DNA from: Patescibacteria group bacterium
GTDB taxonomy: Bacteria; Patescibacteriota; Microgenomatia; UBA8517
Length of the DNA stretch: 64,000 nt
Assembly: GCA_036835125.1 (NCBI GenBank)
Contig: DAITMO010000001.1
Span: forward strand, 421,487 to 485,486
Direction of reading: 5' to 3'
Of the stretch, positions 43,645 to 58,817 are shown one piece after another. Position 1 is the first letter of the stretch, and each line of letters begins with the position of its first letter. Below the pieces are notes generated by a model. That model ran no database searches. It saw only the letters and a list, made by a program, of their open reading frames with translations, and was not told the DNA's origin. The translations under genes and the position numbers were made by a program.

Positions 43645-45660
43645 ATGAAAGATTTTAGGAAACTATCAAAAATTCTTTTTATCAATCAATCTTTGAGTAT
43701 TGGTGGAGCAGAAAATTTTGTCCTCGCACTTTTTTCTTGGTTTGTTAAAAATGGAGTTAATGTTAAAGCCTATACCAATTCAACTTCTTTTATTGGAAAA
43801 CTAAAAAAAAGTGGAATAAAGACCAAAAGGATTCCAATTGTTATAGATATCATTGGTGATTGGAAAGGATTTTTAAAAGGAGTAATACTTTTTATACCTG
43901 GAGTTATTTATTATGCAAAATTAGTATTTCAAAATAGAAATGAAGGAGTGGTGTTCCTTTCGGGATATATTGAAAAGATTCTGGTAACACCCTGGACAAA
44001 ACTTTTAAACATTCCAACGGTTTGGGTTGAGCACGGTCCGCTTGCCCCAATTCTCAACAAGTTTTTTGGTATACCAAAGACTTTATACAGGTTTGTTTCA
44101 AAGTATCCAGATTATGTTATTTTTCCAAGTCATTTTTCGATGGAAAGTAACATTAAAATTTCAGGAATTGATAAGAAAAAAATGTTAGTAGTTAATGATG
44201 GGATAATTCCCATAAAAAGATATCCAGGAAAAATTATTCCAAATACAGCATATTGTGCATCTCGTCTTGAAGAAGGAAAAGGTCAGGATATCCTTATTAA
44301 AGCTTGGAAGAAAGTTATAGAAGTTTTCCCTGAAGCAAAACTTTATATTATTGGAACAGGAGACTTTCGTATTAAACTAGAGAAGCTTATAGAAGAGTTA
44401 CAACTTCAAAAAAACGTTATTCTAACAGGTTGGATAAAAGAAATAGCATCAAAGGCTTCATTTGCCGAACTTGGGGTTTTCCCTTCTGTTTGGGATTTGG
44501 AAGGGTTTGGCGTGGTTCTCCTTGAAGCAATGAATATGAGCAAACCCACCATTTGTTTTGATCATGGTCCCTACTCAGAGGTTGTTGATAGTAAATGTGC
44601 TGTGATAGTAAAAGAAAAAAGTCCTGAAGCTTTGGCAAGGGCAATTGTTAAAGTGTTTTCAGATAAAAAGCTGTCAGATAGTTTGGGTAAAAATGGAAGA
44701 ATAAGATTTAACAAACTTTTTACAATTAACATTTGTGGTTTGGAATATGGGAAAGTATTTGAAAAAGCGATAATGGATAGAACTCTATTTAAGAGAAGCT
44801 CTAGGTTTTCAATATATTTATATGATTTAATGAACAAAGGTTTAACTTTATTTATCACCGAGAGAATTAAAAAACGAAAACTTGGTAGAAAACTCTTTTA
44901 TCTTTTTAAAAAGCCGTATGTAAACGTCTTAGGAAAGAAATTATACATAAACAAAATGGATACTGTTGTTTCAGAAAGTCTTTTGGGGAAAGAAACCTGG
45001 GAGCCACAAATGACAAAACTTCTTTTAAAATATCTTTCTAAATATAGAACTTTTGTTGATATTGGAGCGAATATTGGATATTTTAGCTTGATCATCGGTA
45101 ATACTCTTATAGACAAAGGAAAGGTGTTTGCTTTTGAACCTGCTAGTAATAATTTTAAGTTTTTAGAAAAAACAATTAATGAAGCGAATTTGGGAAACAT
45201 TACGATTGAGAAATTGGCTCTAGGAGATAGTGAATCAGAAGGTTTTATTTATCTTAATGATGAAAATTTTGGAGACCAGAGACTTTGGGGAGAAAAAACC
45301 AAGAAAAAAGAGAAAATTCAAATTACAACACTTGATAGATATTTTTCTAATATTTCAACAAACCCGGAATTGGTTAAGATTGATGTTCAAGGATATGAGT
45401 TAAAAGTATTAAAAGGTGCAATAAGTCTATTAAAAAAGAAACGTATAAAAGTAATAGTTAGTGAGCTTTGGCCGAGTGGTTTAAAAAGTGCAGGTGATTC
45501 TTGGGAGAAATATGTAGCATACTTAAGAAAATACGGATTTAATCTATTTGAAATTTTGGATTCAGGAAAGACAATTCCATTTTCTGATAGATATATAAAA
45601 GAAGAATATTTAGAAGACAATGAATTTACAACAAATATATTAGCAATACTCAAAAGATGA
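43645..45660 (+). CDS. glycosyltransferase family 4 fused to FkbM-family methyltransferase
   Basis: N-terminal ~370 aa: GT1/GT4 C-domain EGFGVVLLEAMNMSKPTICFDHGPYSEVV. C-terminal ~240 aa: TFVDIGANIGYFSL ... FAFEPASNNFKFL (FkbM/Methyltransf_21 signature). Confidence 0.65.
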   Translation: MKDFRKLSKILFINQSLSIGGAENFVLALFSWFVKNGVNVKAYTNSTSFIGKLKKSGIKTKRIPIVIDIIGDWKGFLKGVILFIPGVIYYAKLVFQNRNEGVVFLSGYIEKILVTPWTKLLNIPTVWVEHGPLAPILNKFFGIPKTLYRFVSKYPDYVIFPSHFSMESNIKISGIDKKKMLVVNDGIIPIKRYPGKIIPNTAYCASRLEEGKGQDILIKAWKKVIEVFPEAKLYIIGTGDFRIKLEKLIEELQLQKNVILTGWIKEIASKASFAELGVFPSVWDLEGFGVVLLEAMNMSKPTICFDHGPYSEVVDSKCAVIVKEKSPEALARAIVKVFSDKKLSDSLGKNGRIRFNKLFTINICGLEYGKVFEKAIMDRTLFKRSSRFSIYLYDLMNKGLTLFITERIKKRKLGRKLFYLFKKPYVNVLGKKLYINKMDTVVSESLLGKETWEPQMTKLLLKYLSKYRTFVDIGANIGYFSLIIGNTLIDKGKVFAFEPASNNFKFLEKTINEANLGNITIEKLALGDSESEGFIYLNDENFGDQRLWGEKTKKKEKIQITTLDRYFSNISTNPELVKIDVQGYELKVLKGAISLLKKKRIKVIVSELWPSGLKSAGDSWEKYVAYLRKYGFNLFEILDSGKTIPFSDRYIKEEYLEDNEFTTNILAILKR

Positions 45661-47069
45661 AACCTAAAAAAAGATTATTAGTACCACTCACAATAATTTT
45701 AATAACTCTTCTTGCACTTATTTTGAGATTCTATAGATTTTATCCAAACTTAATTTTTAATGGTGAGATGGGAACGGACTACATAAATGTCTGGAACATG
45801 CTTTATAATAATCGCACATGGTTAATTGGACCAAGAACTTCTCATGAATGGTTTTTTATTCCCCCTTTTGCCTACTATATTTATGCAGGTGTAATGTTTT
45901 TGGGAAAAATGAGCCCAATATCAATAAATGTATTTTGGGGAATTGTTGGTAGTATTGCAGTACCAATTTGCTATTTCTATATCAAAAAATTGTTTGATAC
46001 GAAAACTGCCTTGATTTCTGCATTATTTATTGCAGTTTCACCTGCATGGATCACCCAAACCCGTGATGCACGTTATAACCTCCTTGTTTCAATTCTATTT
46101 CTGCCATATTTATATTATTTAAAAAGATCAGTAGAAGATAAGGGAAAAAGTCTTCTAAAGCTTGGTTTGGTTTTGGGTCTTATGATGAGTTTTTTCCCAA
46201 GCCCACTTCTGCTTATTCCGGGAGTATTGATAAGCTTTGCGTTTTTTAAAGTTAAACCAAGGTTAAAATATGTTGGAAATTTTATTTTAGGATTTATAAT
46301 TCCAAACATAACATTTTTAATTTATGAAATTGGAAACAGATTTGAAATAACAACAAAACTTATTACTTGGATTCCTTATAGAATATTAGGATTTTTTGGT
46401 TTTTATCCTAAAAACACAATAGATAGTGAAATATTTACTCAAAATACAATTTCAATTTATAGATTTATATCTAGTTTGTTTTCACTAAAGATTGGAATGA
46501 TAGCGGGTTCCATTTTTGTATTATTAACACTTGGACTTATTGTTTATTCAATCAGAAATTACAATAATAGAAAAAAAGAAGTTTCCTATTACCTTCTTTT
46601 AATCAATTTACTAACGTGTGTGGTTGGACTTTTTGTACATGGAAATCCTCCATCTCATTATTACTACACAATCTATGCAGTTCCTTTAGTTTTTCTTGCA
46701 TATTTCATGGTTAGATTATTTAAAAGTAAGTTTCTTCTTTGGCTTTCTGTAATATCGATTGGTGGAATTTGTATTTCATCTCTAATTACCGATAAATGGT
46801 TTTTCCAAGACAGATTGCCAGTAGACTATCAAAATAGACCAGTTGCCTATGAAACACAAATAAAATTGGCAGACTCTATTATTCAAATGTCACAAGGAAG
46901 ACCCTTTAATCTTAAAAGAATTGGGACAAATGATCATTTTGAAAATAATTTTGCTAATAATTATATCTATCTTTTATTATTGAAAGGGGTTAAGGTTGAT
47001 CTAAACTCAACAGATACATATACAATAGTTGAAGAACCCAATAACGTTTTTGTATATAAAGAATATTAA
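45657..47069 (+). CDS. GT-C fold membrane glycosyltransferase (GT39/ArnT/PMT-like)
   Basis: 470 aa, ~11 TM segments, N-terminal loop FNGEMGTDYINVWN typical of ArnT/PMT-like GT-C enzymes. Confidence 0.55.
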   Translation: MKPKKRLLVPLTIILITLLALILRFYRFYPNLIFNGEMGTDYINVWNMLYNNRTWLIGPRTSHEWFFIPPFAYYIYAGVMFLGKMSPISINVFWGIVGSIAVPICYFYIKKLFDTKTALISALFIAVSPAWITQTRDARYNLLVSILFLPYLYYLKRSVEDKGKSLLKLGLVLGLMMSFFPSPLLLIPGVLISFAFFKVKPRLKYVGNFILGFIIPNITFLIYEIGNRFEITTKLITWIPYRILGFFGFYPKNTIDSEIFTQNTISIYRFISSLFSLKIGMIAGSIFVLLTLGLIVYSIRNYNNRKKEVSYYLLLINLLTCVVGLFVHGNPPSHYYYTIYAVPLVFLAYFMVRLFKSKFLLWLSVISIGGICISSLITDKWFFQDRLPVDYQNRPVAYETQIKLADSIIQMSQGRPFNLKRIGTNDHFENNFANNYIYLLLLKGVKVDLNSTDTYTIVEEPNNVFVYKEY

Positions 47070-47641
47070 TGAAATACGAAATAATCACTCTTAATCAGAA
47101 GAATATTACTGATTTTGCCATGGCTAGAAATGAGCTTTTGAAAAGAGTAAAAAAAGATTGGGTGTTATTTTTGGATACAGACGAAAGGCTCTCATCAGAG
47201 TTAAAAAGAGAAATTGATAATATTGATTTAAAAAACTACAGTGGATTTTACATTAAAAGAAAAATTAATTTTTTGGGTAAAAATGTAGGTGAAGATAAAG
47301 TTTTACGTTTTGCCAAAAAAAACGCAGGTATGTGGCAAAGAGCAGTTCATGAGAAGTGGATTATAAAAGGGAAAACAAAAATTCTAATGAATTATATAAT
47401 TCATGACACGGCAAGTGATTTACATTCATACATTGATAAAATTAATTATTATTCGACTATTCATGCCAGAGAGAATATGAAGGAGGGGAAGAAATCAAAT
47501 CTTTTTAAAATTATTTTCTTTCCATTTGCAAAATTTATTCAAAACATACTCTTGGGACGTGGGGTTCTATTTAGCATGTTACAATCATTACATTCATTTC
47601 TAGGATGGAGTAAATTATGGGAATTACAACAAAAGCATTAG
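47069..47641 (+). CDS. short glycosyltransferase family 2-like protein
   Basis: NITDFAMARNELLKRVKKDWVLFLDTDERLS matches the GT2 region around the DxD motif, but the ~50 N-terminal residues of a typical GT2 are missing; 190 aa. Confidence 0.45.
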   Translation: MKYEIITLNQKNITDFAMARNELLKRVKKDWVLFLDTDERLSSELKREIDNIDLKNYSGFYIKRKINFLGKNVGEDKVLRFAKKNAGMWQRAVHEKWIIKGKTKILMNYIIHDTASDLHSYIDKINYYSTIHARENMKEGKKSNLFKIIFFPFAKFIQNILLGRGVLFSMLQSLHSFLGWSKLWELQQKH

Positions 47642-48813
47642 TTTTGGTAAAAAAGATTTTTTCCTTTGAATATTTATTTGTGTTTTTGTTTTTATGTCTT
47701 CTTCCTTTTGGTCAATTGGGCCGTTTTAACATTCACATAGGTAGTTTTACAGTGCCATTCCTACTTGCAGATGCTGCTGTTGGTTTAGGGGCTTTATATA
47801 GCATCATTTTTCAAAAAAAGAGAACAATGATTTTTAAGTATTTGATGTTTTTCCTTTTTGCCTGTCTTTTTTCGTTTATTTTGTCCTATTTCTATTTTGG
47901 TACAAAAATTATCTATGGATCACTTTATCTTCTTCGTATTTCTTCCTATTTTATTTTTGTAAATTATGTTTGGAATTATATAAAAGGAATTGAAAAGAGA
48001 AGAAGGCTTCTGGTTGACAGTTTAATTGCAGTTTCAATAATCTCAGCCTTATTTGGATGGATTCAAATGGTGGTATTACCTGATTTAAAAATCCTTTTCT
48101 ATATAGGTTGGGATATGCATCTTTTTAGACTTGCGGGAACATTTTTTGATCCAACATTTCTAGGCTTGATAATTGTTTTTGGACTTCTAATATCAATAAA
48201 CAGATATTTTGAGGTAAAGAAAAAATTCTATATTGCAATAATACTGTTTCTATTAATTTCTCTAGCGTTTACATATACAAGAGCATGTTTTCTAGCTTTT
48301 TTGGGAGGATTAACTGTTTTAGCATATGTAAAGAAAAAACTAAAAGTATTTATTGGTCTTTTGGTTGGATTAGCTTTAATGTTATTTCTTCTTCCAACCA
48401 GCGGTAACTTAAGTAATAAACTAACAAGAACTTTTAGTATTGATGCCAGACTTCAAAATTACAAAGAAGCGGAAAATATAATAGAAAAATACCCTCTATT
48501 TGGTGTGGGGTATAACAATTTCTGTGTTGCAAGAAATATTTATATTGGAGAAGAAGAATACTCTTCTCATGCATGTTCTGGGTCTGACTCGAGTTTGCTA
48601 TTAGTTTTGGGAACAACAGGAATTGTGGGACTAATGGTTTTTATCGGAATGATTATAAAAACAAGGTTATTTATAAAAAAGGACAGTTATGGAGTATTGC
48701 TTACAGCTATTTTAGTTTCTGTATTTACCCACAGCCTATTTTCAAACTCACTATTCTATCCGTTTACCTTGGGGTATATAGCAATTATTCTGGCAACTTC
48801 ACTTAAGGAGTAA
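47617..48813 (+). CDS. O-antigen ligase/polymerase (Wzy_C) family membrane protein
   Basis: 398 aa, ~10 TM segments, Wzy_C-like loop (TYTRACFLAFLGG ... periplasmic loop). Confidence 0.6.
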   Translation: MGITTKALVLVKKIFSFEYLFVFLFLCLLPFGQLGRFNIHIGSFTVPFLLADAAVGLGALYSIIFQKKRTMIFKYLMFFLFACLFSFILSYFYFGTKIIYGSLYLLRISSYFIFVNYVWNYIKGIEKRRRLLVDSLIAVSIISALFGWIQMVVLPDLKILFYIGWDMHLFRLAGTFFDPTFLGLIIVFGLLISINRYFEVKKKFYIAIILFLLISLAFTYTRACFLAFLGGLTVLAYVKKKLKVFIGLLVGLALMLFLLPTSGNLSNKLTRTFSIDARLQNYKEAENIIEKYPLFGVGYNNFCVARNIYIGEEEYSSHACSGSDSSLLLVLGTTGIVGLMVFIGMIIKTRLFIKKDSYGVLLTAILVSVFTHSLFSNSLFYPFTLGYIAIILATSLKE

Positions 48814-49507
48814 AGTTTAGGGTTATACTTTTTTCTGTGGTATTTTCTGCTTTATCCTTAGCTTTAACACTAAAAGTGTTAGCTCCTTCGTTTAGTGTGG
48901 TTGTATATTGAAATTTGCCTTCATCGTCAATTGTAATAAATCTATCGTTTATTGTAATTTGTACATCAGTTTCTGTTTCTCCTTGAATGGTAACCTGTCT
49001 TTGACCTGATCCATAATAACTAGAATTATCAGTTGGAGAAGTAATAGACAAATCGGGTGGTTCATTATCAAACGTTATTTGGTGATCATCTGATTTTTGA
49101 CTCATGTTTCCTGCTTGGTCTATTGCTATAGCGTTAAAAGAATTTATACCATTACCCAGGTTTAGAGTAAAAGAAAATTGACCATTATTATCAGACAGCA
49201 CTTCTTGCTCCTCTCCATTAAAAGTTAATTTGACTGTTGCACCCCCCTCAGTATTGCCTAGAAGTGTCACACTTTTTTGATTTGTGTATTCGTTAAAATA
49301 TTTAAACTTTGGTGGTGGAGGTGGAGTTGTGTCAGAACTAACTATGGAACCACCTTTTCCTTTGAATCCTGAGACCAAAGAGGCAAGTTTTCCTAATGCA
49401 GGAATACCTAAAAAGTACAAAATAGCCAATGCTGCAATTGTGAGTCCAATGTATAAAAGAGCGCTTCTAGTATTTTTCTTTTGTTCGTAATTAATGTATT
49501 TTCTCAT
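48803..49507 (-). CDS. membrane-anchored protein with tandem bacterial Ig-like domains
   Basis: N-terminal TM, Pro-rich linker (PPPPPKF), then two ~80-aa beta-rich repeats (VTLLGNTEGGATVKLTFNGEEQ ... / VTIQGETETDVQITINDRF ...). Confidence 0.5.
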   Translation of the reverse strand: MRKYINYEQKKNTRSALLYIGLTIAALAILYFLGIPALGKLASLVSGFKGKGGSIVSSDTTPPPPPKFKYFNEYTNQKSVTLLGNTEGGATVKLTFNGEEQEVLSDNNGQFSFTLNLGNGINSFNAIAIDQAGNMSQKSDDHQITFDNEPPDLSITSPTDNSSYYGSGQRQVTIQGETETDVQITINDRFITIDDEGKFQYTTTLNEGANTFSVKAKDKAENTTEKSITLNFTP

Positions 49508-49514
49508 TATCTTG

Positions 49515-49587
49515 AGCCGAGGGTGGGGATCGAACCCACTACCTGCGGTTTACGATACCGCCGCTCTACCAACTGAGCTACCTCGGC
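49515..49587 (-). tRNA. tRNA-Thr (anticodon CGU)
   Basis: Reverse complement folds as acceptor gccgagg/cctcggc, D-arm gctc-agttggta-gagc, anticodon arm gcggt-atCGTaa-accgc, T-arm gtggg-ttcgatc-cccac, discriminator U; 73 nt, no CCA. Confidence 0.85.
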
Positions 49588-49618
49588 AAGGTAGTCAATT
49601 ATATCATTTACTCTCTTT

Positions 49619-49633
49619 TGGAGCGGGTGAGCG
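49619..49633. repeat. 15-bp direct repeat identical to the 3' end of tRNA-Gly (att-like; partner at 51032..51046)
   Basis: tggagcgggtgagcg is identical at 49619-49633 and 51032-51046. Flanks diverge immediately, and the second copy is the 3' acceptor/CCA end of the minus-strand tRNA-Gly. Confidence 0.8.
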
Positions 49634-49960
49634 TAATTGGCTCGGACCTATTTAGCCAGGACGAGTATATCAAACAATATCTACTCGATCCCACCTTACC
49701 ACTTATTTTTAAAGTTAAAATAGGTCTTCGCTATTACATTACCAGTGACCTTATTTTACAGCTAAACGTATTCAAAGACTATCTTGAGAAAATTAATCCA
49801 TTTCTGTTTCGAGATATATTTGGTAAACATCGCAAAGATCGAAAAATATGCTAACATTTGGATACCGAATGATCCCTGTAGTGAAAGTACCTTATTTTAG
49901 GAAGCGAATGTTGACAGTTAATTACTGATCCATCTTGGCTACAGGGACCGAAATTTATTT

Positions 49961-50491
49961 ATGATCGAAACACACCCGTTTGGAAGTTTTGTTCCTCCTA
50001 AAGCAAAATATTTATTACTGGGAAGCTTTACGACCAAAGAAGCTTTTGATGACAAGAAAAAAGCAGCCTACGTTTGGTTTTACTCCAATGGCGGAAGAAA
50101 TCAGTTTTGGCCAATTTTACAAGAGATCTATGGAATTAAGCTGCAAACCAGGGATGAGATGCAACAACTTTTTACCGATTTGTATATGGCTCTGGCGGAT
50201 ATTATTTATCAGTGCGAAAGAAAGAAGACAAGTAATTTGGATATTAACCTAACAAATATTGTTTACGCGTTGGATGACATAACCAAGATTTTAAAAGAAA
50301 ATAAGATCGAAAAAATATTTTTTTCTAGTCGATTCGTCGAAAATACATTCCGACGAGTTTTTAAACATGTTGTAAACCAATATCCTAAGATAGAACTGAT
50401 TACATTACCAAGTCCATCTCCACGGTACGTCCAAATGACAAAGATTGAGAAAGTTAAACGGTATAAAGAATTATTACCCAAACTAAGGTAA
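49961..50491 (+). CDS. uracil-DNA glycosylase superfamily protein (Mug/TDG-like)
   Basis: YLLLGSFTTKEAF ... YSNGGRNQFWPIL (compare Mug GINPG ... NRFW) and C-terminal LPSPSPRY (UDG motif B, HPS/LPNPS-like). Confidence 0.5.
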   Translation: MIETHPFGSFVPPKAKYLLLGSFTTKEAFDDKKKAAYVWFYSNGGRNQFWPILQEIYGIKLQTRDEMQQLFTDLYMALADIIYQCERKKTSNLDINLTNIVYALDDITKILKENKIEKIFFSSRFVENTFRRVFKHVVNQYPKIELITLPSPSPRYVQMTKIEKVKRYKELLPKLR

Positions 50492-50980
50492 TACTTGCAA
50501 GACTTGATCTATAATTGACTCATTCTTGTCAAATATAAATTCTGCTTCGACATCTTTTCCTTCAAGAACTAAAGGTAACCAAAGTTTTTCGTCAGGCCAC
50601 ATCTTTTCAAACGGAATGTCATCTTTATTGAACCATTGTGGATTCATTTCTTCTGTTTCAACAGGATCGCCATTCCATTCACTGACCAAAAATACGCTAA
50701 CTTGTTGACCCCATTCTGGATTGTCGGGGAAATAGCACTTCAAAGTCGCTTTTTTGGTTAAGTTGCTAACAACAACATTAATTTCTTCTTGAGTCTCCCG
50801 TATCGCTGCATTTTCAATAGTTTCATCATCATTCTTCTTTCCGCCAATTCCATTAAACTTTCCAACAGCAAAACCACGCTTTTTCATAGCCAAAAGGACT
50901 TGATCTCCTTTAATTAGAAAACACAAAGTGGCTTGTCGAAGGGGATGTGTGAATGATTTTTTATAGTCAAAAATATTCAT
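50483..50980 (-). CDS. NUDIX hydrolase
   Basis: Nudix box GGKKNDDETIENAAIRETQEEINV (Gx5Ex7REUxEExGU); 165 aa. Confidence 0.8.
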   Translation of the reverse strand: MNIFDYKKSFTHPLRQATLCFLIKGDQVLLAMKKRGFAVGKFNGIGGKKNDDETIENAAIRETQEEINVVVSNLTKKATLKCYFPDNPEWGQQVSVFLVSEWNGDPVETEEMNPQWFNKDDIPFEKMWPDEKLWLPLVLEGKDVEAEFIFDKNESIIDQVLQVLP

Positions 50981-51031
50981 TTATGTATTTGTCAAGCAAC
51001 TTTGTGTACATTTCTGTAGGTAATTCTCATA

Positions 51032-51105
51032 TGGAGCGGGTGAGCGGAGTCGAACCGCCCTTTCTACCTTGGGAAGGTAGCGTTGAGCCGATCAACTACA
51101 CCCGC
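51032..51105 (-). tRNA. tRNA-Gly (anticodon CCC)
   Basis: Reverse complement: acceptor gcgggtg/cacccgc, D-arm gttg-atcggct-caac, anticodon arm ctacc-ttCCCaa-ggtag, T-arm ggcgg-ttcgact-ccgct, discriminator U, CCA encoded; 74 nt. Confidence 0.85.
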
Positions 51106-51174
51106 ATAGGGCTCAAACCACACAAACAATTATACCTCATCCTAATTGTTCAAATTAGTTAGAAAGCTTTTTGT

Positions 51175-51717
51175 TTACCTTGGCAATATTAATATATTTC
51201 CTGTGTGGATAATATTTGGATTATCAAGATTGTTTACTCTAGCAATCTCTGTCCATACAAATCCATCTCCATATGCTCTAACTGCAATATCCCAAAGACA
51301 ATCACCTTCAGAAACTGTATAAGTATCTGCTGTTATAGATGTTAAATCTGTAACTTCAGCTTTTGCTGTAACAGTTGGGGTTTTTGCTTCAACATCATTA
51401 GGAATTATTAATTTTTGTCCAATTTCTAAAGAGTCTGATGTTAAATTATTTGCACTTTTTAGATCAACCCAGTTATATCCAGAACCATATGAATCTTCAG
51501 CTACAGACCAAAGTGATTCACCTTGGGTAACTATATGCTCATTTTGACTCATTGTTGCTTGAGTAGAACTATCAGTAATAACTCCTGAATTTTTATCTTT
51601 AAAGTAATTAACTATCAACACTCCAACTATCACTATAACCAAAGCACCTAAAACCATACTAATATTTTCTTCGTTTAGTTTGATAGTTTTTAGAAGTTTT
51701 TTTAAATTGAATTTCAA
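51175..51717 (-). CDS. LysM-domain protein (two LysM repeats), membrane-anchored
   Basis: N-terminal TM; two LysM repeats (VTQGESLWSVAEDSYGSGYNWVDLKSANNL ... and YTVSEGDCLWDIAVRAYGDGFVWTEIARVNNL ...). Confidence 0.8.
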   Translation of the reverse strand: MKFNLKKLLKTIKLNEENISMVLGALVIVIVGVLIVNYFKDKNSGVITDSSTQATMSQNEHIVTQGESLWSVAEDSYGSGYNWVDLKSANNLTSDSLEIGQKLIIPNDVEAKTPTVTAKAEVTDLTSITADTYTVSEGDCLWDIAVRAYGDGFVWTEIARVNNLDNPNIIHTGNILILPR

Positions 51718-51796
51718 ATTATTTCACCTCCCCCTTAAGGCAGGTAAGTTAGCCTGAATTTAGATGAAGTGGGGTGTGAAGTCAAGTACCTATTTT

Positions 51797-51836
51797 TCCA
51801 AAATAAAAACCTCTAAAATGGCACATATTTTAGGGG
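51797..51836 (-). terminator. rho-independent terminator for the 51913..52341 gene
   Basis: 10-bp stem cctctaaaat/attttagggg (one mismatch), 7-nt loop, followed on the minus strand by ggTTTTTATTTTgg. Confidence 0.45.
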
Positions 51837-51912
51837 TTTATCTTTCACTTACTAATTTTGTTACTTTTGAAATATCTTCCGATTTTTGATCGCATTGATC
51901 AATTTAACAAAT

Positions 51913-52341
51913 CTATCGATGATATTTCGAAAAAAGTTTTTTAACAGATTGTTGTAATGATTTTTGCAAAGATGCTAACGAGCGGACAAAGTGGTGCCAG
52001 AGAGATTCTGGAGAAAGTTCAACTTCCTTATCAATCTTCTGTCCCATCAGAATCTTCTCGATTACCGAGACATAATCTATCGGATCGAAAAGATCTGCAA
52101 TTTTGACAGACAATTCATACCGTTGTATAAAAATCTCAGTAACACCGCGCATTTTCATGATTTTTTTAACAATTTCTTTTCCGACTGGGCCCGTTTCATT
52201 CAAGTATTTATTGCTTTTGTCACGAAGTGGCCAGTTAAATGACTGGATGGTGCAATCGCAAATTTGAAAATTGGTGTGAAAAGTTAAAAAATGAGTGTTA
52301 ACATCACCATTTTCCAACATAACTTCCTTCTTGGAACTCAT
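51913..52341 (-). CDS. hypothetical protein
   Basis: 142-aa ORF between tRNA-Gly and tRNA-Asp; noticeably higher GC than the flanks; no motif recognised. Confidence 0.35.
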   Translation of the reverse strand: MSSKKEVMLENGDVNTHFLTFHTNFQICDCTIQSFNWPLRDKSNKYLNETGPVGKEIVKKIMKMRGVTEIFIQRYELSVKIADLFDPIDYVSVIEKILMGQKIDKEVELSPESLWHHFVRSLASLQKSLQQSVKKLFSKYHR

Positions 52342-52462
52342 ATCATCCTCACTTTCTCATCATCATCAGAATGTCAAAGTGCCCTTGTGCCTAAGGCGAA
52401 AACAATTTTAGCATAATAATATGATTTGTCAATACTACAGGATATAATAATCAACATCTGAT

Positions 52463-52491
52463 TTGCGACTGGTGGTATTTGTTGATAAAAT
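52463..52491 (+). promoter_or_regulatory. putative promoter for tRNA-Asp (TTGCGA-17-TAAAAT)
   Basis: TTGCGA at 52463-52468, 17-nt spacer, TAAAAT at 52486-52491, about 10 nt upstream of the tRNA 5' end. Confidence 0.4.
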
Positions 52492-52501
52492 ACACTCTTG
52501 A

Positions 52502-52782
52502 GAGGTCGTAGCTCAATTGGTTAGAGCGCTTCCCTGTATAAAGTGGCAGCTCTTAAGAGTAATCTTGAGATGATAATCAGGCTAATTCGGGAAATGCCTT
52601 TGAAAGAAGGAGAATCCCGAGCTAAATCTACGCTCAATTAAAAAATGAACGTAGTAAATGTGTAGAGACTATATACCTGATATCCTACCTGGTTCACCCA
52701 GGGGATAATGAGATAGTCCACCTTTTCAGAAATGAAAAGTTTTGCACGGAAGAGGTTGCGAGTTCGAGTCTCGTCGACCCCG
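52502..52782 (+). tRNA. tRNA-Asp (anticodon GUC) interrupted by a group I intron between nt 35 and 36
   Basis: 5' exon 52502-52537: acceptor gaggtcg, D-arm gctc-aattggtta-gagc, anticodon stem cttcc, then loop nt ctgt. 3' exon 52745-52782: cac-ggaag (stem partner)-aggtt-gcgag-ttcgagt-ctcgt-cgacccc-G. Spliced loop is CUGUCAC (as in E. coli tRNA-Asp), discriminator G; one A-C mismatch at 2:71. Confidence 0.8.
52538..52744 (+). ncRNA. group I self-splicing intron (207 nt) in the tRNA-Asp anticodon loop
   Basis: Internal guide GUGGCAG (52543-52549) pairs with 3' exon CAC (P10) and 5' exon CUGU (P1, U.G at the 5' splice site); terminal omega-G at 52744. Conserved P (aattcgggaaa), Q (aatcccgagc), R (gtgtagagactata) and S (gagatagtcc) elements, with gacta/tagtc forming P7. 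Confidence 0.8.
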
Positions 52783-54267
52783 CCCAGAGTGACGGTACTC
52801 AGGTTTTAGGAGTACATCATAGGGCATTTTGAAGCTAAAAACAGGGTTTTTGTTATCCAAATAGAAGTTCTCACCGATATCCATAAGTAATTTTCTCTTC
52901 TCTAAAATTTTATCGCTTTCCATAACACTTCGTGCGTAAAAAGCGTTATCTAGAAATTCTTCAGCTAGTTCCAACCAATTTTCTTCTGAATTTTTGACAT
53001 CCCTAATTAATCCCTCGATTCTAGCCTGTTCACTTAAAGATATATTCTTTTGGATCATAAATTCATCTCTAGTAAGTTCATTATTTGCACGCATTTCAAT
53101 TAATCTACTTATTTTGGTCTGAATCATTCTTTCTTCCTTATTCAGGTGTTCAATTTGTTCATTGTTTCTATTCGATTGATCCTTATTTTTAGCTTTTAAA
53201 AGTTTCACTCCAAGCTCCCAAACATCTTTATCAATCGATATCTTGGAGATTTTATATAACAATCTACCTTCAAAATTTTCCAATCTAACTGGTGATTGAT
53301 CACAATTTCCTTTACGTTTTGTGCAGTGTAAATAAACATATCTGACTGTTCGGTTGGTTTCTTTGTAATATTTAGTTTTGAATGTTGTGGTTATGGCGGA
53401 ATTACATGATGGACATTTTAAAAGGCCATTATAGCTCATTTTATTCCAAATATTCACTTGCGGCTTTGATCGGTCTTTTAACTTTTCTTGTGCGGTATCA
53501 AACAGCGTCTTAGTGATTAGTGGATCATAATTCCCTTTGTAAAGTTGCCCTTTATATTTGAAATAACCATAATAGGATGGATTTGTAAGCATTCGGTGAA
53601 TTTGTTCTTTACAAAGTTTTTCACCATTCCTAGCAGTTAAACCTTGTGAATATAAAAAATTCGCAATGTTTGTAAGCGAATACTGACCAGTAGCTTCCAT
53701 TTCAAAAATTTTTTTAATCAACGGAGCTTCAAATCCGTCTGGAATTAGATTCTTTTTACCTTTCTCGCCGACCATTTTATAACCAAAGAACGAATAACCA
53801 GGATATTCTCCTCGTTCAACCTTGTGCTTTAAACCTCTCAAAACATTTTGGCTCAATACTCGAGAATATTGATTAGCCATTCCAAAATGAATTTGAAGTA
53901 TTAGGTGGTCTGAGTCTGGATTATAAATTTCTCCCGTGGGTGTTCTTATTTCTTTTAAAACACCATCTTGCAATAACTGAAGTATTTCACCCCCTTCTTT
54001 TGGATTTCTACTTAACCTATCTGGTTTCCAGGTAAGTATTGCATCAGCCTTATTAGATTTAATAAGTTCTAACATTTCATTAAACACGACACGTTTATTT
54101 GGTTTGTAGGCAGATTTACTTTCTTGTAAACGGTAAACAATGGGCAAAGATTCTTTCAATGCATATTCTTCACATTCTAAATTCTGGTCGTTTATTGAAG
54201 CCACTTGTTTCTCTTTTGCTTCAGAGGACTTCCTGGAATATCTAATATATCTTAATTTGTTATTCAT
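52726..54267 (-). CDS. large serine recombinase (integrase)
   Basis: N-terminal resolvase catalytic domain (RYIRYSRKSSEAKEKQVASINDQ ... ILTWKPDRLSRN), recombinase domain and Cys4 zinc ribbon (CPSCNS ... LHCTKRKGNC); 513 aa. The last ~19 codons are the antisense of the tRNA-Asp 3' exon. Confidence 0.85.
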   Translation of the reverse strand: MNNKLRYIRYSRKSSEAKEKQVASINDQNLECEEYALKESLPIVYRLQESKSAYKPNKRVVFNEMLELIKSNKADAILTWKPDRLSRNPKEGGEILQLLQDGVLKEIRTPTGEIYNPDSDHLILQIHFGMANQYSRVLSQNVLRGLKHKVERGEYPGYSFFGYKMVGEKGKKNLIPDGFEAPLIKKIFEMEATGQYSLTNIANFLYSQGLTARNGEKLCKEQIHRMLTNPSYYGYFKYKGQLYKGNYDPLITKTLFDTAQEKLKDRSKPQVNIWNKMSYNGLLKCPSCNSAITTTFKTKYYKETNRTVRYVYLHCTKRKGNCDQSPVRLENFEGRLLYKISKISIDKDVWELGVKLLKAKNKDQSNRNNEQIEHLNKEERMIQTKISRLIEMRANNELTRDEFMIQKNISLSEQARIEGLIRDVKNSEENWLELAEEFLDNAFYARSVMESDKILEKRKLLMDIGENFYLDNKNPVFSFKMPYDVLLKPEYRHSGRGRRDSNSQPLPCKTFHF

Positions 54268-54308
54268 AATTAAAAACCTTATTCTAATCTTAAAAGAAAT
54301 GTAAAAGA

Positions 54309-54749
54309 CTAGGATATTTTGATCTCATCATCTTTCTTATCTGATAAATTGAACATTATTTTTGACAACTCGTCTTCTGATTTTAAATAGTATATTGCCA
54401 CATTTGGCAATGACTTTTTTGTTAGGATATTTGCTGTATTTACCTTGAACATGTCCAAGTTTTTTATATACGAGACTCCATTATTTTCCTCCAACAACCC
54501 CTTTTTTATTAATAATTTTCTCAACCTATGAACTTTACTATAACTACAACCCCAAAGTTCTGAGAACTCCTCATCACTTTTAAGTATAGCTCTATAATAC
54601 TTATGTTTTCTATCCCAGTCTGCTTGCATTGAAAACAAAATGTATGCACTTAATTCTATTAAATTCACGACCCCTCTACTGAGTAGATATTGTATACATC
54701 TCAATATTACAATATAACCAGAGTATTTTGTAGAGTATTCAATATTCAT
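54309..54749 (-). CDS. hypothetical protein with putative winged-helix DNA-binding segment
   Basis: 146 aa; WGCSYSKVHRLRKLLIKKGLLEE resembles an HTH recognition helix; no family assigned. Confidence 0.3.
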   Translation of the reverse strand: MNIEYSTKYSGYIVILRCIQYLLSRGVVNLIELSAYILFSMQADWDRKHKYYRAILKSDEEFSELWGCSYSKVHRLRKLLIKKGLLEENNGVSYIKNLDMFKVNTANILTKKSLPNVAIYYLKSEDELSKIMFNLSDKKDDEIKIS

Positions 54750-54766
54750 ATTAAATTTGTATATCT

Positions 54767-55000
54767 TTACCTAAAAATTATTGTTTTTAATCTTCCAATT
54801 GATTCATAGTATGTTCTGGCGTTAACTAACAATTCTCCAAAAAAGTATTTTTTTGATATGCTTTCGCAAAGACCTATATTTTCAAAAACAAAAAAACAAA
54901 TGTTTTTGATACGTTCTATTTTTGAGATTTGTATGCCATAAGTAATCAAGGCGGCTGCTTCTGCCAAATCTCGTGTTTTGTATTCTTCAGAATTTCTCAT
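54767..55000 (-). CDS. hypothetical small protein
   Basis: 77-aa ORF immediately upstream of 54309..54749 on the same strand. Confidence 0.3.
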   Translation of the reverse strand: MRNSEEYKTRDLAEAAALITYGIQISKIERIKNICFFVFENIGLCESISKKYFFGELLVNARTYYESIGRLKTIIFR

Positions 55001-55185
55001 ATTGCATTTTCTTTATAAATCTAAAAGCATTTTCTATATATGAGGTAAGATTTACGGCTATTTGTTTAATTTCCAAATCAGACAGTTGCCTTTTATATCG
55101 AGGTTCAAAAACTTTTTTTATGTTTAATTTTAGTGTGTTATCAAGCCATGTAATTTCCATATCCATTGATTAAAGATTTGCCAAC

Positions 55186-55211
55186 AAAAAACCAGGCCAA
55201 GCAAGCCTGGT
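55186..55211 (-). terminator. rho-independent terminator (minus strand)
   Basis: Stem accaggc/gcctggt with loop caagcaa, followed on the minus strand by TTTTTT (plus strand: aaaaaaccaggccaagcaagcctggt). Confidence 0.45.
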
Positions 55212-55607
55212 ATTACAATCCTTAATTAGCCTAATGGCTAAAACCTAAACAGGTTATGGATATGGCTTTCGACAATACTATTGTCTGTAGCTTCCAAAAA
55301 TAATTTTAGTTAGGTGTTTACTAATTTGTCAACACGACGCAATGTAATAAATGTGGAACCTAAAAACTGTAACGAGGGTACTGGTAGTTCAATCTTAAGG
55401 ATTATTCATTTTGTTAAAAGTCATTGCATACACAGAGTGGAGGGGATACTACTTGCTAGTGCTTGTTAATATTTGTCAAGTTCTTGCATAGTCATTTATT
55501 TAAATATGTTATGCTCTTATTGTTATTGCTGGTTGGAAGGCAATAACTGGCAGAATCCTGTGCCTAATCCATCGCAAAAAGGGTATAGTTCCCATACACA
55601 TAAAGCC

Positions 55608-56225
55608 CTAGTTACTTTGTGGTCTTACTGCACAGGAAGTTTGATACCATATGGGGGTAAATTTTCCTTTATTGTAAGTGTATCTAGTGACTCTATATTC
55701 ACCATTGTTCCAATCAATAGTCTCATGTAGAAAGAAACCATTACTATCTCCGGCTTTTGATATATTCACACTGGCTCCCTGGTATTTAAAAACTATGAAT
55801 CCATCCTTAACAATCACTACATCATTTGGAGTGTGATTCATTGCAGTATTTGCTGTTAAAATTCTTTCATCTATTTGATCACTATCAACATCAAACTTGG
55901 TTTCTGTCCAAGGATTGATACTTTCAGGGGTTGTATAAAATTCACCTCCAAATGGTTCTTTTGTCGAATCAAATTTTTCTTTAAGAGAAATGATTTTTTT
56001 ATTTGAAGTAACCAGAGAAGGAGGATATGAAGCAATTACTTCATATAGCACATCCGAAAGATATTCTTTAGGAAATTCTTTTCCTACATAATGTGGACAT
56101 ATAATTTGAGTAAAGTTTGGTTGTCTAAGATTTTTTGACCTATCAAATATTGTGTTACTAACTAATAAATAAGTTCCAATTATCGAGACTAATGATACTG
56201 CGATGTGGGAGAGTAACTTTCTCAT
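55608..56225 (-). CDS. hypothetical secreted protein
   Basis: 205 aa with N-terminal signal/TM (MRKLLSHIAVSLVSIIGTYLLVSN); overlaps the upstream ORF by 4 nt. Confidence 0.4.
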   Translation of the reverse strand: MRKLLSHIAVSLVSIIGTYLLVSNTIFDRSKNLRQPNFTQIICPHYVGKEFPKEYLSDVLYEVIASYPPSLVTSNKKIISLKEKFDSTKEPFGGEFYTTPESINPWTETKFDVDSDQIDERILTANTAMNHTPNDVVIVKDGFIVFKYQGASVNISKAGDSNGFFLHETIDWNNGEYRVTRYTYNKGKFTPIWYQTSCAVRPQSN

Positions 56226-56437
56226 TTACAAGGTTTATAAACATTAAACCTTTCACATCCAATTCCAGTAAAGTTATTTATCTCTGTTTCCCAGCCACCT
56301 TTAGTGTATGAGAACCTGTTCAACCAAAGCAACAGAATTTGGAGCAAGACAATAATGATTAGAATCACTCTCGCGAAGTATTTTTGATCAACTATTTTTT
56401 TTATTATTTGTAAAAACTTATTCAAAGATTTTTTCAT
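56222..56437 (-). CDS. hypothetical small membrane protein
   Basis: 71 aa with one TM; translationally coupled between the S26 peptidase gene and the secreted-protein gene. Confidence 0.35.
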   Translation of the reverse strand: MKKSLNKFLQIIKKIVDQKYFARVILIIIVLLQILLLWLNRFSYTKGGWETEINNFTGIGCERFNVYKPCK

Positions 56438-57141
56438 TTTGAAAATAATTTAAACATAAATTTGCCAATAATATTTTGTTTTTTGACGACTTGGATATCG
56501 CCACCTCTTTTGTCAAAAAGTACAAGATATTCATCATCTTTCAGTGAAACATTTTGTACCCTATTTTCAGCCCACTGAATCCAATCTGCATATGGTTCAC
56601 TAAGACTATTACCATTAACTACAAGCTCACCTGGGGCAATCTGGAGTGTTTCATTTGGCAAACCCACTATTCTACCCATCCTCTCACTATTGCTAGATAT
56701 GTAGTCAATAACATCGCCTCTCTTCGGAGGGTTTATCTTATAAATAAATTTATTTACCAAGTATGTATCATCATGCACATACAATGGTTCCATTGAGAAT
56801 CCATCAACAATGGCATAGCGAAAGAGACTGGCCCATAAAATCACAATAACAATAAGGCTTGCTACAAGAATTCCGACAATCCTTATTATTTTCCAGATTA
56901 GTTTTTTAGAATGAAGCCAGATTATCATCCAAATAGGAAAACTAAATATACAGGTGAGTAAAGAAATAATTAATGGTAAAGATATCCATAAAGGAGCCGT
57001 ATTAGAAATAAAACCTATTCTAAAAACATCCAGGATAAGAAAAATTACAAATACTATAAACGAATACAGAGAGATTTTCTTTAACAAATTATTTTCATAT
57101 AATTTGTTCTTATTTAGTCCAGGCACGGATTTTTTATCCAT
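56434..57141 (-). CDS. S26 family signal peptidase (SipW/TraF-like) with extended N-terminal multi-TM region
   Basis: IVDGFSMEPLYVHDDTYLVNKF ... PKRGDVIDY ... GLPNETLQIAPGELVVNGN (S26 Ser/Lys dyad context), preceded by ~100 aa with 3 TM helices. Confidence 0.65.
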   Translation of the reverse strand: MDKKSVPGLNKNKLYENNLLKKISLYSFIVFVIFLILDVFRIGFISNTAPLWISLPLIISLLTCIFSFPIWMIIWLHSKKLIWKIIRIVGILVASLIVIVILWASLFRYAIVDGFSMEPLYVHDDTYLVNKFIYKINPPKRGDVIDYISSNSERMGRIVGLPNETLQIAPGELVVNGNSLSEPYADWIQWAENRVQNVSLKDDEYLVLFDKRGGDIQVVKKQNIIGKFMFKLFSK

Positions 57142-57238
57142 ATGAAAGTAATAATTAATCAGATTTTACGCCCTTATTGTAAATAATTGCAAGATATATC
57201 TGGTAAATATATAGCTGGTAATTTATTAACCTTTAGAA

Positions 57239-57451
57239 ATGAATTACCAAACAATATACAGAAAGCTAGGTGAAAGAATTGAATGGTTCAGAAAAGAGAA
57301 AGGAATGACACAAGAGGAGTTGGCAGAAAAAGCTGGTTTACATAGGGCATATTTTTGGGATATAGAAAGGGGTAGAAATATCTCAGTAAGAACAGCGTAT
57401 TTGATATCCAGGGCGTTAGAGATTAAACTATCCACACTTTTCGATTTTTAG
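57239..57451 (+). CDS. XRE-family helix-turn-helix transcriptional regulator
   Basis: 70 aa; MTQEELAEKAGLHRAYFWDIERG is a canonical Cro/C1-type HTH; divergent from the S26 operon. Confidence 0.8.
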   Translation: MNYQTIYRKLGERIEWFRKEKGMTQEELAEKAGLHRAYFWDIERGRNISVRTAYLISRALEIKLSTLFDF

Positions 57452-57521
57452 TTAAAATATTACTTTAATTTTGCATGTTTGCATCTTTGTTATAAAATAA
57501 CTTAGTTCTGTCTAAAACTGA

Positions 57522-58511
57522 ATGACCAAAGCTCAATTAGAAACAAGTATTAAGACATTGGCTGAATTAAGAGATTCTAACGAGATTATCTTTTATTTGA
57601 CTAGTGACAAAAAACCTCCAGAATTGTTTGCAACGGCGATTGCAACAGATACGTTAGCTATATTTGAAAAACATCTATCAAAGATTGGTCAGAAAAATAA
57701 AATTTCACTTTTTCTTAATACAACTGGAGGTAGTCTCGAGGCACCATGGCCGATAGTGTCTTTAATACGTGAGTATTGCAAAGAGCTTGAAGTAATTGTA
57801 CCTTTTCAGGCCTTGAGTGCGGGTACACTTATTTGTTTGGGTGCTGATAAAATTGTTATGACTCCATCAAGTTTTTTAAGCCCAATTGATCCGAGAGGTT
57901 CTTACAGACTTGGTGCTGAAACGAAAAGTATTCAAATAGAGGATGTTGTTGGTTTTATTGACTTTGCTAAGAATAAAGTTGGACTATCGGAACAGGGTTC
58001 TTTAGCCGAGGTTATGAAACTACTATCATCAGAGATACCTCCTTCGATATTGGGATCGGTGAACAGAACCCATTCACTTATAAGAATGCTTGCTGGAAAA
58101 ATGTTGAAATTGCATAAAACAAAACTGGATGATAATCAAATTCGACAGATTGTAGAAAATCTAACTGAAAAGCTATATTCACACCAATATTTAATTGGTA
58201 GAAAAGAAGCGAAAACCGTAGTTGGTTTCCATGGCATAATTCATAATGCGACCTCAGATGAAGAAAAACTAATAAAACAATTAATGAAATATTTTTCTGA
58301 CGAGATGGAATTATCCAAAAAATTTGACCCTGCCGAATATTTACAAGGTGATGCTGTTGAAAATACAATTCGAGTTTCTAGGGCTATTATAAAAAGTTCT
58401 GCTGGTCAGGACACTTATACAACTGATTATAGAATACAGAAAATACAAGATCCGGCTGCTCCCAAACCATTTAATGTAAGTTGGTCTGACAAAGAATGGA
58501 TAGAAAAATAA
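57522..58511 (+). CDS. ClpP-fold serine peptidase of the SDH (serine dehydrogenase proteinase)/S49-like family
   Basis: LFLNTTGGSLEAPWPIVSLIREY (compare ClpP INSPGG) and VPFQALSAGTLICLGADKIVM (nucleophile Ser in LSAG, as in SDH-family AKSAATLIALGADEIVM); 329 aa. Confidence 0.45.
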   Translation: MTKAQLETSIKTLAELRDSNEIIFYLTSDKKPPELFATAIATDTLAIFEKHLSKIGQKNKISLFLNTTGGSLEAPWPIVSLIREYCKELEVIVPFQALSAGTLICLGADKIVMTPSSFLSPIDPRGSYRLGAETKSIQIEDVVGFIDFAKNKVGLSEQGSLAEVMKLLSSEIPPSILGSVNRTHSLIRMLAGKMLKLHKTKLDDNQIRQIVENLTEKLYSHQYLIGRKEAKTVVGFHGIIHNATSDEEKLIKQLMKYFSDEMELSKKFDPAEYLQGDAVENTIRVSRAIIKSSAGQDTYTTDYRIQKIQDPAAPKPFNVSWSDKEWIEK

Positions 58512-58567
58512 GTATTTATGAAGATGACAAAACTGGTTTGAAAAGGGGGTGAAAATATAAAAGATAT

Positions 58568-58810: not shown

Positions 58811-58817
58811 TCCATGA

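Follow-up and report, generated by a model that had tools for sequence, protein, structure and literature searches.

How a 1.4-kb islet came to lie between the genes for tRNA-Thr(CGT) and tRNA-Gly(CCC), and whether it is a genetic unit of its own, is the question raised by one locus of a Patescibacteria group bacterium (class Microgenomatia). The locus is part of a stretch of 64,000 nucleotides (hereafter the window; GenBank contig DAITMO010000001.1, positions 421,487 to 485,486). An earlier note, made from the letters of the window alone, had drawn attention to a 15-bp repeat of the tRNA-Gly 3' end at both borders of the islet and had predicted that tRNA-Gly once stood directly upstream of tRNA-Thr. 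As that note had observed, the islet encodes no integrase; it contains a small open reading frame (sORF), a gene for a protein resembling uracil-DNA glycosylases (UDG) and a Nudix hydrolase gene, the latter two at the positions that it had given. We show here that the islet is an insertion missing from a near-identical strain. There is good support for placing it in a large family of cassettes without recombinase genes, apparently not described before, behind tRNA-Gly genes in Microgenomates, a group of the candidate phyla radiation (CPR). Literature searches found no description of such a tRNA-Gly cassette system.

An insertion bounded by a repeat of the tRNA-Gly 3' end

The two exact copies of the 15-bp repeat (TGGAGCGGGTGAGCG) lie where the earlier note had located them (Table 1). 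The right copy forms the final 15 nt of tRNA-Gly(CCC), CCA included, and the left copy is situated 31 nt from the 5' end of tRNA-Thr(CGT). With up to 2 mismatches allowed, no third copy was found in the 64-kb window, for which the chance expectation is 0.01 matches. The repeat is oriented as expected for insertion into a tRNA 3' end: an intact tRNA is followed by the insert and then by a displaced copy of its 3' end downstream.

An empty site in a related genome, which the earlier note had proposed to look for, was found by looking up the exact sequence of a 234-aa immunoglobulin (Ig)-like protein encoded to the left of tRNA-Thr. The look-up led to L132 (L numbers designate the loci compared), a 24-kb contig from another sample, in which no more than ~250 nt separate the genes for the identical Ig-like protein and for a LysM protein of 180 aa. 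In the DNA of L132, tRNA-Thr, the identical 31-nt spacer and tRNA-Gly(CCC) are contiguous, with nothing else between the two tRNA genes and with tRNA-Thr 31 nt downstream of tRNA-Gly, which is the predicted ancestral order. An empty junction would read ACTCTCTTTT[T/G]GAGCGGGTGAGCGGAGTCGAACC. Window positions 43803-49633 and 51025-51768 align to L132 without gaps at 98.7% identity; 22 nt of L132 align to both junctions, and the breakpoints fall inside the 15-mer. Compared to this strain of the same species, the window is longer by 1,413 bp, and the repeat marks the exact limits of the additional DNA. Because L132 carries the empty site with these 1,413 bp missing, the 1.4-kb stretch is certainly a real insertion.

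The site is occupied differently in a further strain. L137 (Logan SRR31593249, 1-260), a short contig, has the identical spacer and TTTTGGAGC and then runs into a different, GC-rich insert. Since this insert differs from the islet, at least three allelic states of the site exist among strains with the identical Ig-like protein. The insert of L137 opens with another tRNA-3'-end-like stretch. L139, considered as a fourth state, was rejected: it has the same sequence as the window, and the gene caller had chosen a shorter Nudix start.

In base composition the islet is not as distinct as had been supposed. The earlier note described it as GC-richer than the host; its bulk GC is 0.349, compared with a window mean of 0.338 +/- 0.026, which places it at the 66th percentile of 1.4-kb windows. 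Only GC at third codon positions is somewhat raised (0.30-0.34 vs 0.14-0.28 in neighbouring genes).

A family of cassettes behind tRNA-Gly genes

With a profile of the sORF, species-representative genomes yielded 39 loci and metagenomes 80; the set of sORF-bearing loci from Microgenomates, to which the family is restricted, comprises 122. A tRNA-Gly gene lies 0.3-6.4 kb downstream on the opposite strand in 84 of the 122 (36 CCC, 35 TCC and 13 GCC), and 35 of the remaining 38 end within 3.5 kb of the sORF. Cassettes are arranged singly or in tandem behind tRNA-Gly(CCC), (TCC) and (GCC), and 2-3 copies of the sORF are present in 15 of the 84 arrays. At more than 100 loci, homology to the window reaches its left limit at 49599-49672, mostly at 49612-49621, with unrelated DNA further left.

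The unit composed of the sORF, an RNA leader, the UDG-like gene and the Nudix gene was found in three contexts, each time cut at the core, i.e. the tRNA-like opening of the sORF. Positions 49619-51013 of the window correspond to 3837-5225 of L055 with 87.6% identity; there, other cassettes lie on both sides, with ~52-nt near-perfect direct repeats. Positions 49621-51041 match L011 with 81.9% identity as the distal of three units at tRNA-Gly(TCC), with LytR_C on the other side. In both loci, the DNA after the unit opens with TGGAGCTGGT(C/A)ACCG and a sORF paralogue. Between the window and the L055 and L011 copies of the cargo, synonymous divergence (dS) is 0.5-1.65, and the ratio of nonsynonymous to synonymous divergence (dN/dS) is 0.05-0.08 for both cargo genes. 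From these values, the unit is old and functional and has stayed intact while its context changed.

The chromosomal surroundings are conserved as well. The block Wzy, Ig-like, tRNA-Thr(CGT), array, tRNA-Gly(CCC) and LysM is kept in genomes whose proteins are only 25-72% identical to those of the window. A second polymorphic site is seen at tRNA-Val(TAC) and tRNA-Gly(GCC), which are adjacent in L036, L087 and L092 and separated by a sORF and cargo in L065. Since the empty sites lack the sORF, it belongs to the inserted DNA.

Array cargo is hypervariable: of 137 open reading frames, 110 are singletons with no relative in the set. The families represented include Nudix, HXXEE, DUF5677, peptidases, complete Gabija, AriA/OLD-like ATPase and EcoRI restriction-modification. 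With such cargo, the tRNA-Gly arrays act as small defence islands. The complete Gabija system (GajA 746 bits, GajB 656 bits) and the AriA/OLD-like ATPase are encoded at L044 8278-11983 and L020 10328-12154, and the EcoRI restriction-modification genes form a pair among the array open reading frames. Beside tRNA-Gly(GCC), ARAGORN reported a tRNA with the anticodon CTA ('tRNA-Pyl') in L012 (8308-8383), L053 (from 11668) and L054 (from 8243); it may be an amber-suppressor-type tRNA.

Table 1. Features of the islet and its borders in the window, and large serine recombinase (LSR) genes of other loci
Feature	Position	Strand	Evidence or remark
tRNA-Thr(CGT), chromosomal flank	49514..49587	-	ARAGORN; Rfam tRNA 67 bits; same gene and spacer in L132
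31-nt chromosomal spacer aaggtagtcaattatatcatttactctcttt, tRNA-Thr to left junction	49588..49618	.	identical in L132 and L137
sORF, 78 codons, TTG start here; predicted four-helix protein	49618..49854	+	
Left repeat copy, distal junction, attL-like core; sORF codons 1-5	49619..49633	.	exact repeat; left alignment of L132 stops at 49633
Structured RNA leader	49863..49952	+	outer stem P1 49871-49881/49939-49949, short P2, hairpin P3
Cargo gene 1, putative glycosylase of the UDG superfamily, family-6-like, 176 aa	49961..50491	+	
Cargo gene 2, Nudix hydrolase, 165 aa	50483..50980	-	convergent with the UDG gene, 9-nt overlap
Conserved class 1 right-end spacer tttatgtatttgtcaagcaactttgtgtacatttctgtaggtaattctcata	50981..51031	.	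same spacer in L009, L011, L014, L018, L027, L055 and others
Right repeat copy, 3' end of functional tRNA-Gly	51032..51046	.	right-flank alignment of L132 begins at 51025
tRNA-Gly(CCC), target gene, intact	51032..51105	-	ARAGORN; Rfam 54 bits
Related LSR genes	L044 488-2047; L029 6518-8032; L025 1109-2641; L050 14917-16194		

The core, the small gene and the right ends

The first ~30 nt of the sORF are antisense to the 3' half of tRNA-Gly and include the invariant GGCTCGGAC box at 49639. Throughout the family, the sORF opens with the core (A/T)TGGAGC(T/G)GGT(A/C/G)ACCG, which parallels the tRNA-Gly 3' end position by position through the discriminator, the acceptor strand and the first T-stem bases. 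If a 5-6-nt insertion is allowed, the likeness extends to the T-loop (GGCTCGGACC vs GAGTCGAACC in the tRNA). The repeat had been taken as a copy of the tRNA 3' end. This is right for the exact copy in the window; the same nucleotides are also the start of a conserved small gene, and that start is tRNA-like family-wide. A match at all nine variable positions of the core was found in only 2 of 1,302 core-by-tRNA combinations, one of them the window's own pair, and among 79 distinct pairs only the window reaches 9/9. Because of this, the perfect 15-mer is best understood as the product of a local and presumably recent event, superimposed on a resemblance that is older and common to the family.

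The sORF is a coding sequence with a conserved product of 77 aa across the family. Its 33 full copies are free of internal stop codons and have indels with lengths divisible by three; at the first, second and third codon positions, identity is 0.66/0.75/0.56, and dN/dS is 0.24. We found 240 homologues of 62-124 aa, all short among the 120 matches listed, and an exhaustive HMMER search of 1.84 billion representatives gave 57 clusters of 50-164 aa. No Pfam family matched the sORF proteins, and no structural neighbour was found for the four-helix fold, predicted with moderate confidence. Leftmost copies of the sORF often have no start codon, and internal array copies have ATG.

Right ends fall into two classes, each located directly left of tRNA-Gly or of an internal sORF. 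The class 1 spacer, present in the islet, is ~50 nt long and contains two TTT(G/C)TGTA repeats ~10 nt (one helical turn) apart; in other loci it lies directly left of the tRNA-Gly 3' end or of an internal sORF start. The class 2 right end is a highly conserved element of ~150 nt with 32 distinct copies (e.g. L065 3020-3155 and L012 7990-8136) and has no match in Rfam. At its start is a pseudo-tRNA-Gly 3' half in sense orientation (AGGTCCGACTCCGGTTACCGGTA), which runs opposite to the real tRNA; the element also carries a GGCTAGAAC box. At sORF starts and in class 2 right ends, GGCT[CA]G[AG]AC forms an invariant box. We counted 182 copies of it on the strand of the sORF and 8 on the other; 99 copies are at sORF starts and 49 within 200 nt to the left of a junction.

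A structured RNA leader

The sORF of the islet is followed by a structured RNA leader (Table 1). Its outer stem, P1, contains a 9-bp inverted repeat (49873-49881/49939-49947) that the earlier note had picked out as an extra feature of the noncoding region. Upstream of the leader, a conserved TAAYAT box at 49852-49857 overlaps the stop codon of the sORF. The ~85-nt motif was found in 87 places (72 distinct sequences), many of them right after a sORF and others inside arrays with no sORF at hand. In 66 distinct copies, 91% of the cells were paired, compared with 34-46% when the partner strand was slid. Both sides change in 15 of the 21 pairs, and none of 500 shuffles reached the observed covariation score. 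Such changes include CG:32/UA:23 in P1, CG:51/UA:12 in P2, and GAUGG/CCAUC to GACAG/CUGUC in P3. Because G-U pairs fall on the + strand, the RNA is assigned to that strand. No Rfam 15 family was detected at E<=1 in positions 48500-55500 of the window or in L056, L065 and L066. The possibility that GGTACC, upstream of P1, forms a pseudoknot with GTACC inside the leader was judged by eye in a few sequences and discarded.

In 48 of 83 copies, an open reading frame on the + strand begins within 150 nt after the leader, usually 4-20 nt past the motif. The genes in question encode an HNH nuclease, phosphatases, peptidases, beta-lactamase, aminoglycoside phosphotransferase (APH), GajA-like, Nudix and UDG proteins. 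Because these downstream genes are unrelated in function, we read the motif as a portable leader; a metabolite riboswitch is unlikely for the same reason.

Cargo genes of the islet

The earlier note had called the product of the first cargo gene a Mug/TDG-like member of the UDG superfamily, and the superfamily fold is borne out. The 176-aa protein has no Pfam match of its own and does not reach Pfam UDG; a homologue with 59% identity, P0118, passes Pfam UDG. Its best family is TIGR04274 (family-6 hypoxanthine-DNA glycosylase), from which it differs in scoring 52.5 bits, below the cutoff of 80. With the AlphaFold2 model (pLDDT 84, pTM 0.84), Foldseek found 2L3F from Methanosarcina as the best match (E 3e-6; TM-score 0.65-0.70), followed by MUG and TDG of family 2 (TM-score 0.54-0.63), SMUG1 and family 4. 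Where UDG motifs 1 and 2 are expected, the protein has LLGSF and LPSPSPR. There are 955 homologues, labelled 'hypoxanthine-DNA glycosylase' by JGI; the best 120 of the 955 are 58-96% identical and are spread across CPR lineages. A UDG-like gene with 84% identity stands alone at L009 8001-8531 (Woesebacteria CP065002), with no sORF, leader or Nudix partner. Judging from this copy, the putative glycosylase occurs as a gene of the chromosome as well as in cassettes.

The product of the second cargo gene is a Nudix hydrolase, as had been noted from its sequence: it matches Pfam NUDIX (PF00293) with 54 bits against a cutoff of 21, and its MutT-type matches are weak and far below their cutoffs. The Nudix box, GKKNDDETIENAAIRETQEEIN, is readable in the translation and fits GX5EX7REUXEEXGU except for the last G. 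dN/dS is 0.05-0.06 for the UDG-like gene and 0.06-0.08 for the Nudix gene; judged by these ratios, both are under strong purifying selection. The pair plausibly serves in damaged-base removal and nucleotide-pool sanitation.

A proposed route of integration

We consider it probable that positions 49619-51031 (1,413 bp, with one copy of the repeat) are a discrete mobile gene cassette that entered the 3' end of tRNA-Gly(CCC) by site-specific recombination, with the recombinase acting in trans. A cassette consists of a core mimicking the last 12-15 nt of tRNA-Gly, the 77-aa open reading frame, a leader after some sORFs, cargo of one to several unrelated genes, and the right-end spacer. A circular cassette would recombine through its spacer-core-sORF junction with the 3' end of tRNA-Gly, in a conservative site-specific reaction, and the enzyme would come from another part of the genome or from a related autonomous element.

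Joining the ends of the islet over the 15-mer would produce CTCAT-ATG-GAG-CGG-GTG-AGC-GTA-ATT-GGC, that is, a sORF with an ATG and the spacer upstream; the expected circular junction is GTAATTCTCATATGGAGCGGGTGAGCGTAATTGGCTCGGACC. The rebuilt junction has the same arrangement as the internal array junctions in L009, L011 and L055. Because of this match, we infer a circular intermediate with an attP spanning the sORF start. Since joining the ends restores both the ATG and the upstream region, integration would part the sORF from them. The sORF would regain them only as a circle or in tandem, and could act as a switch or a directionality factor. The leader would be a portable expression or regulatory module for the cargo that follows.

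More tentatively, the loci together may represent an undescribed cassette-capture system, similar to integrons in its outcome but with unrelated parts, in which circles with the 77-aa gene, and often the RNA, enter the 3' ends of three tRNA-Gly genes by means of a chromosomal recombinase or an LSR acting in trans, with the sORF as switch or directionality factor and the leader as portable module. We hold this broader proposal to be possible rather than probable.

Several observations weigh against movement of the islet as a site-specific cassette. The empty allele has TTGAGC where both junction copies of the window have TGGAGC, and the tRNA of L132 ends in CAA, not CCA. This one-base mismatch goes beyond a simple single crossover and requires strain polymorphism or heteroduplex repair. 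In the 79 distinct pairs, cores matched the local tRNA-Gly at 4.35 of 9 positions and foreign tRNA-Gly at 4.27 of 9 (p ~0.16); the notion that the core is a copy of the local tRNA across the whole family was dropped as unsupported. Because cores are no closer to the local tRNA-Gly, most arrays could be old and fixed. Judging from the dS values, transfer of the cassette between the L055, L011 and window genomes was not recent. The sORF family is absent from the viral contigs searched. A simple sigma-70 consensus scan for a junction promoter gave fewer matches than shuffled sequences, and the spacer had no match at all. The cassette encodes no recombinase, and none was pinpointed for the family. 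No excised circle or attP-only molecule was seen, in a search that did not cover raw reads.

Large serine recombinases as candidate enzymes

Inside the arrays no tyrosine recombinase was found; the sole one, Xer-like, lies 7 kb from the L019 array. The earlier note had proposed mobilisation by a serine recombinase 1.7 kb from the islet. This gene (52726-54267) encodes a 513-aa LSR, and its last ~20 codons run antisense through the 3' exon of tRNA-Asp. Compared to L132, it is part of a separate insertion of 7,453 bp (window 52784-60236) at the extreme 3' end of tRNA-Asp, with junctions that share 2-3 nt; no long direct repeat was found at this element. Its other cargo includes DUF5659, an S26 peptidase, a Cro/CI-type helix-turn-helix protein, a ClpP/SDH-type protease and other genes. 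The tRNA-Asp element thus has what characterises an LSR element, namely an LSR gene inside, a crossover of ~2 bp and no long repeat, whereas the islet has no LSR gene and has a 15-bp repeat. Because the junctions share only 2-3 nt and the gene does not contain the GGCT[CA]G[AG]AC box, the LSR of the window is a poor candidate for the enzyme that moved the islet.

The cognate enzyme could still be another LSR of the tRNA-targeting clade, in which case most cassettes would be derivatives that lost the LSR; mobilisation by the LSR of the window, as the earlier note had proposed, is a special case of this explanation. In the window (tRNA-Asp), L044 (tRNA-Thr) and L025 (tRNA-Leu), LSR genes have 3' ends that reach antisense into a tRNA 3' end, and the LSR gene of L050 stops ~200 nt short of tRNA-Pro. 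A frameshifted LSR gene lies inside the sORF array of L029, directly against tRNA-Gly(TCC). The LSR genes of L029, L044 and L050 each contain, in the 3' region, two copies of the box found at sORF starts, spaced 104 nt apart, a suggestive sequence link between cassettes and LSRs. The ssrA islands of Dehalococcoides offer a precedent for an LSR with 20-bp tRNA-like repeats and tandem islands, some integrase-less (PMC3146451). We nevertheless regard this explanation as rather unlikely. The LSR element of the window, checked against the empty site in L132, has junctions that share 2-3 nt with no repeat, and its LSR has only ~31% identity with those of L029 and L044, whose genes contain the box. 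Very few of the 122 loci, and a single array, have an LSR gene. No LSR-sORF fusion protein was found among the 1.84 billion representatives. Another idea was that integration splits an LSR gene, in the manner of the Sulfolobus spindle-shaped viruses (SSV-type), and that the sORF is the C-terminal part cut off in this way; the frame of the sORF relative to the core matches that of the L044 LSR, and the idea was rejected, as the 1.84-billion search gave only proteins of 50-164 aa.

An inverted copy of the C-terminal 35-41 codons of the LSR lies 250-540 bp upstream of the gene in L044 (243-139) and L029 (5979-5857). tRNA-Asp(GTC), at 52502-52784 on the + strand, contains a 207-nt group I intron in the anticodon loop (Rfam RF00028, 75 bits); it was missed by ARAGORN at default settings and found with intron-aware ARAGORN, and the intron-bearing gene is 98% identical in L132. 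Two other differences between L132 and the window were seen. Within 51768-52483, L132 has ~475 nt of unrelated sequence in place of the region of a 142-aa open reading frame (51913-52341). At the position corresponding to 62526/62528, L132 is longer than the window by ~460 nt, which encode a protein of the HicA toxin family (Pfam PF07927) together with a small partner open reading frame.

Homologous exchange, decay and chance

Cassettes might also be exchanged by homologous recombination, with the sORF-RNA module (~340 bp, 75-88% identical between genomes) and tRNA-Gly plus spacer as arms for transformed cargo and the repeat as a by-product. The flanking modules are indeed unusually conserved in DNA, while the host flank proteins (Ig-like, LysM, Wzy) are only 25-72% identical; recombinases are absent from the arrays and their immediate surroundings, and the cores are not copies of the local tRNA. 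The empty site of L132, however, has neither the sORF module nor the spacer, and for this reason provides no left homology arm. In addition, the insertion or deletion is exact to the 15-mer, in more than 100 loci homology stops at the core and gives way to unrelated DNA, and L137 diverges immediately after the stretch that it shares with the junction. We consider homologous exchange improbable. Because the empty site lacks left homology, site-specific recombination fits far better.

A second alternative is that the islet is a decayed, immobile remnant of a larger, integrase-bearing island, with fossil attL and attR, and that the empty strain never received it; the earlier note had named a decayed island as one of two options. 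Absence of an integrase, the dS of 0.5-1.65 between cassette copies of different genomes and the degeneracy of family cores relative to local tRNAs agree with this. Yet the integrase-less 1.4-kb unit is conserved as a discrete cassette with the same ends in three array positions, which independent decay would not yield. Moreover, three allelic states are found among strains with the identical Ig-like protein, and both 15-mers are perfect, unlike those of the other 78 distinct pairs. Decay is thus an improbable explanation. That the repeat arose by chance or by local duplication unrelated to the insertion can be dismissed: the sORF start resembles any tRNA-Gly 3' end, and matches at 5-7 of the 9 variable positions are common, but only 0.01 matches are expected per window, 9/9 is reached in only 2 of the 1,302 combinations, and the empty site of L132, which stops exactly at the repeat, already refutes it.

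Comparison with known systems

Recombinase-less arrays of gene cassettes are familiar from integrons. Integron cassettes are recombined by IntI, a tyrosine recombinase, at attI and at attC sites, which are imperfect palindromes, and clusters of attC sites lacking an integron-integrase (CALINs) are known. Like integron cassettes, the tRNA-Gly cassettes form small arrays of units with one to a few genes, have hypervariable cargo including defence genes, carry one conserved repeat each, and have no adjacent integrase. Unlike them, they have no IntI and no attC-type palindrome; the repeated module is a coding sORF with a folded RNA, and the target is a tRNA 3' end rather than attI.

Cis-mobilizable elements (CIMEs) are att-flanked deletion derivatives of integrative and conjugative elements (ICEs) or integrative and mobilizable elements (IMEs), and accrete in tandem where a target gene has its 3' end, as with ICESt1 and its CIME in Streptococcus thermophilus (PMC5704250). 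The islet is similar in having att-type direct repeats and no integration or transfer genes, in belonging to units that stand in tandem at the target, and in presumably moving by the recombinase of another element. It differs in that no related autonomous element with the same ends was found, and descent of the cassettes from an ICE or IME, by which a CIME is defined, is no more than a possibility. The units are also small (0.3-6 kb), each with the conserved sORF and often the leader, and occupy three tRNA-Gly genes in more than 100 CPR genomes.

Genomic islands at ssrA in Dehalococcoides typically have a six-gene integration module, with the serine recombinase DsiB beside attL, and the LSR leaves 20-bp repeats of the tRNA-like 3' end; the islands are found in tandem, and some have no integrase (PMC3146451). 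They share with the cassettes the tandem arrangement behind a tRNA-like gene, a short repeat of its 3' end, an adjacent conserved motif, variable cargo and the occurrence of integrase-less members. The arrays described here differ in having no intact recombinase, in being targeted to tRNA-Gly rather than to the transfer-messenger RNA (tmRNA) gene, and in having a module made of a small open reading frame and an RNA. By this comparison, the tRNA-Gly cassettes resemble integron cassettes in outcome and CIMEs and ssrA islands in behaviour.

CPR genomes are tiny, and how they gain accessory genes is little understood. Three conserved tRNA-Gly loci are hotspots in these genomes, with units that share their ends and carry defence, repair, nucleotide-sanitation and uncharacterised genes. 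Two conserved parts of the units, the 77-aa protein and the ~85-nt structured RNA, are themselves uncharacterised and are represented by many natural variants. The polymorphism among strains, in which the same site is empty, holds this cassette or holds another insert, makes the system directly testable. If the units are mobile as proposed, they would constitute a compact and widespread gene-shuffling system.

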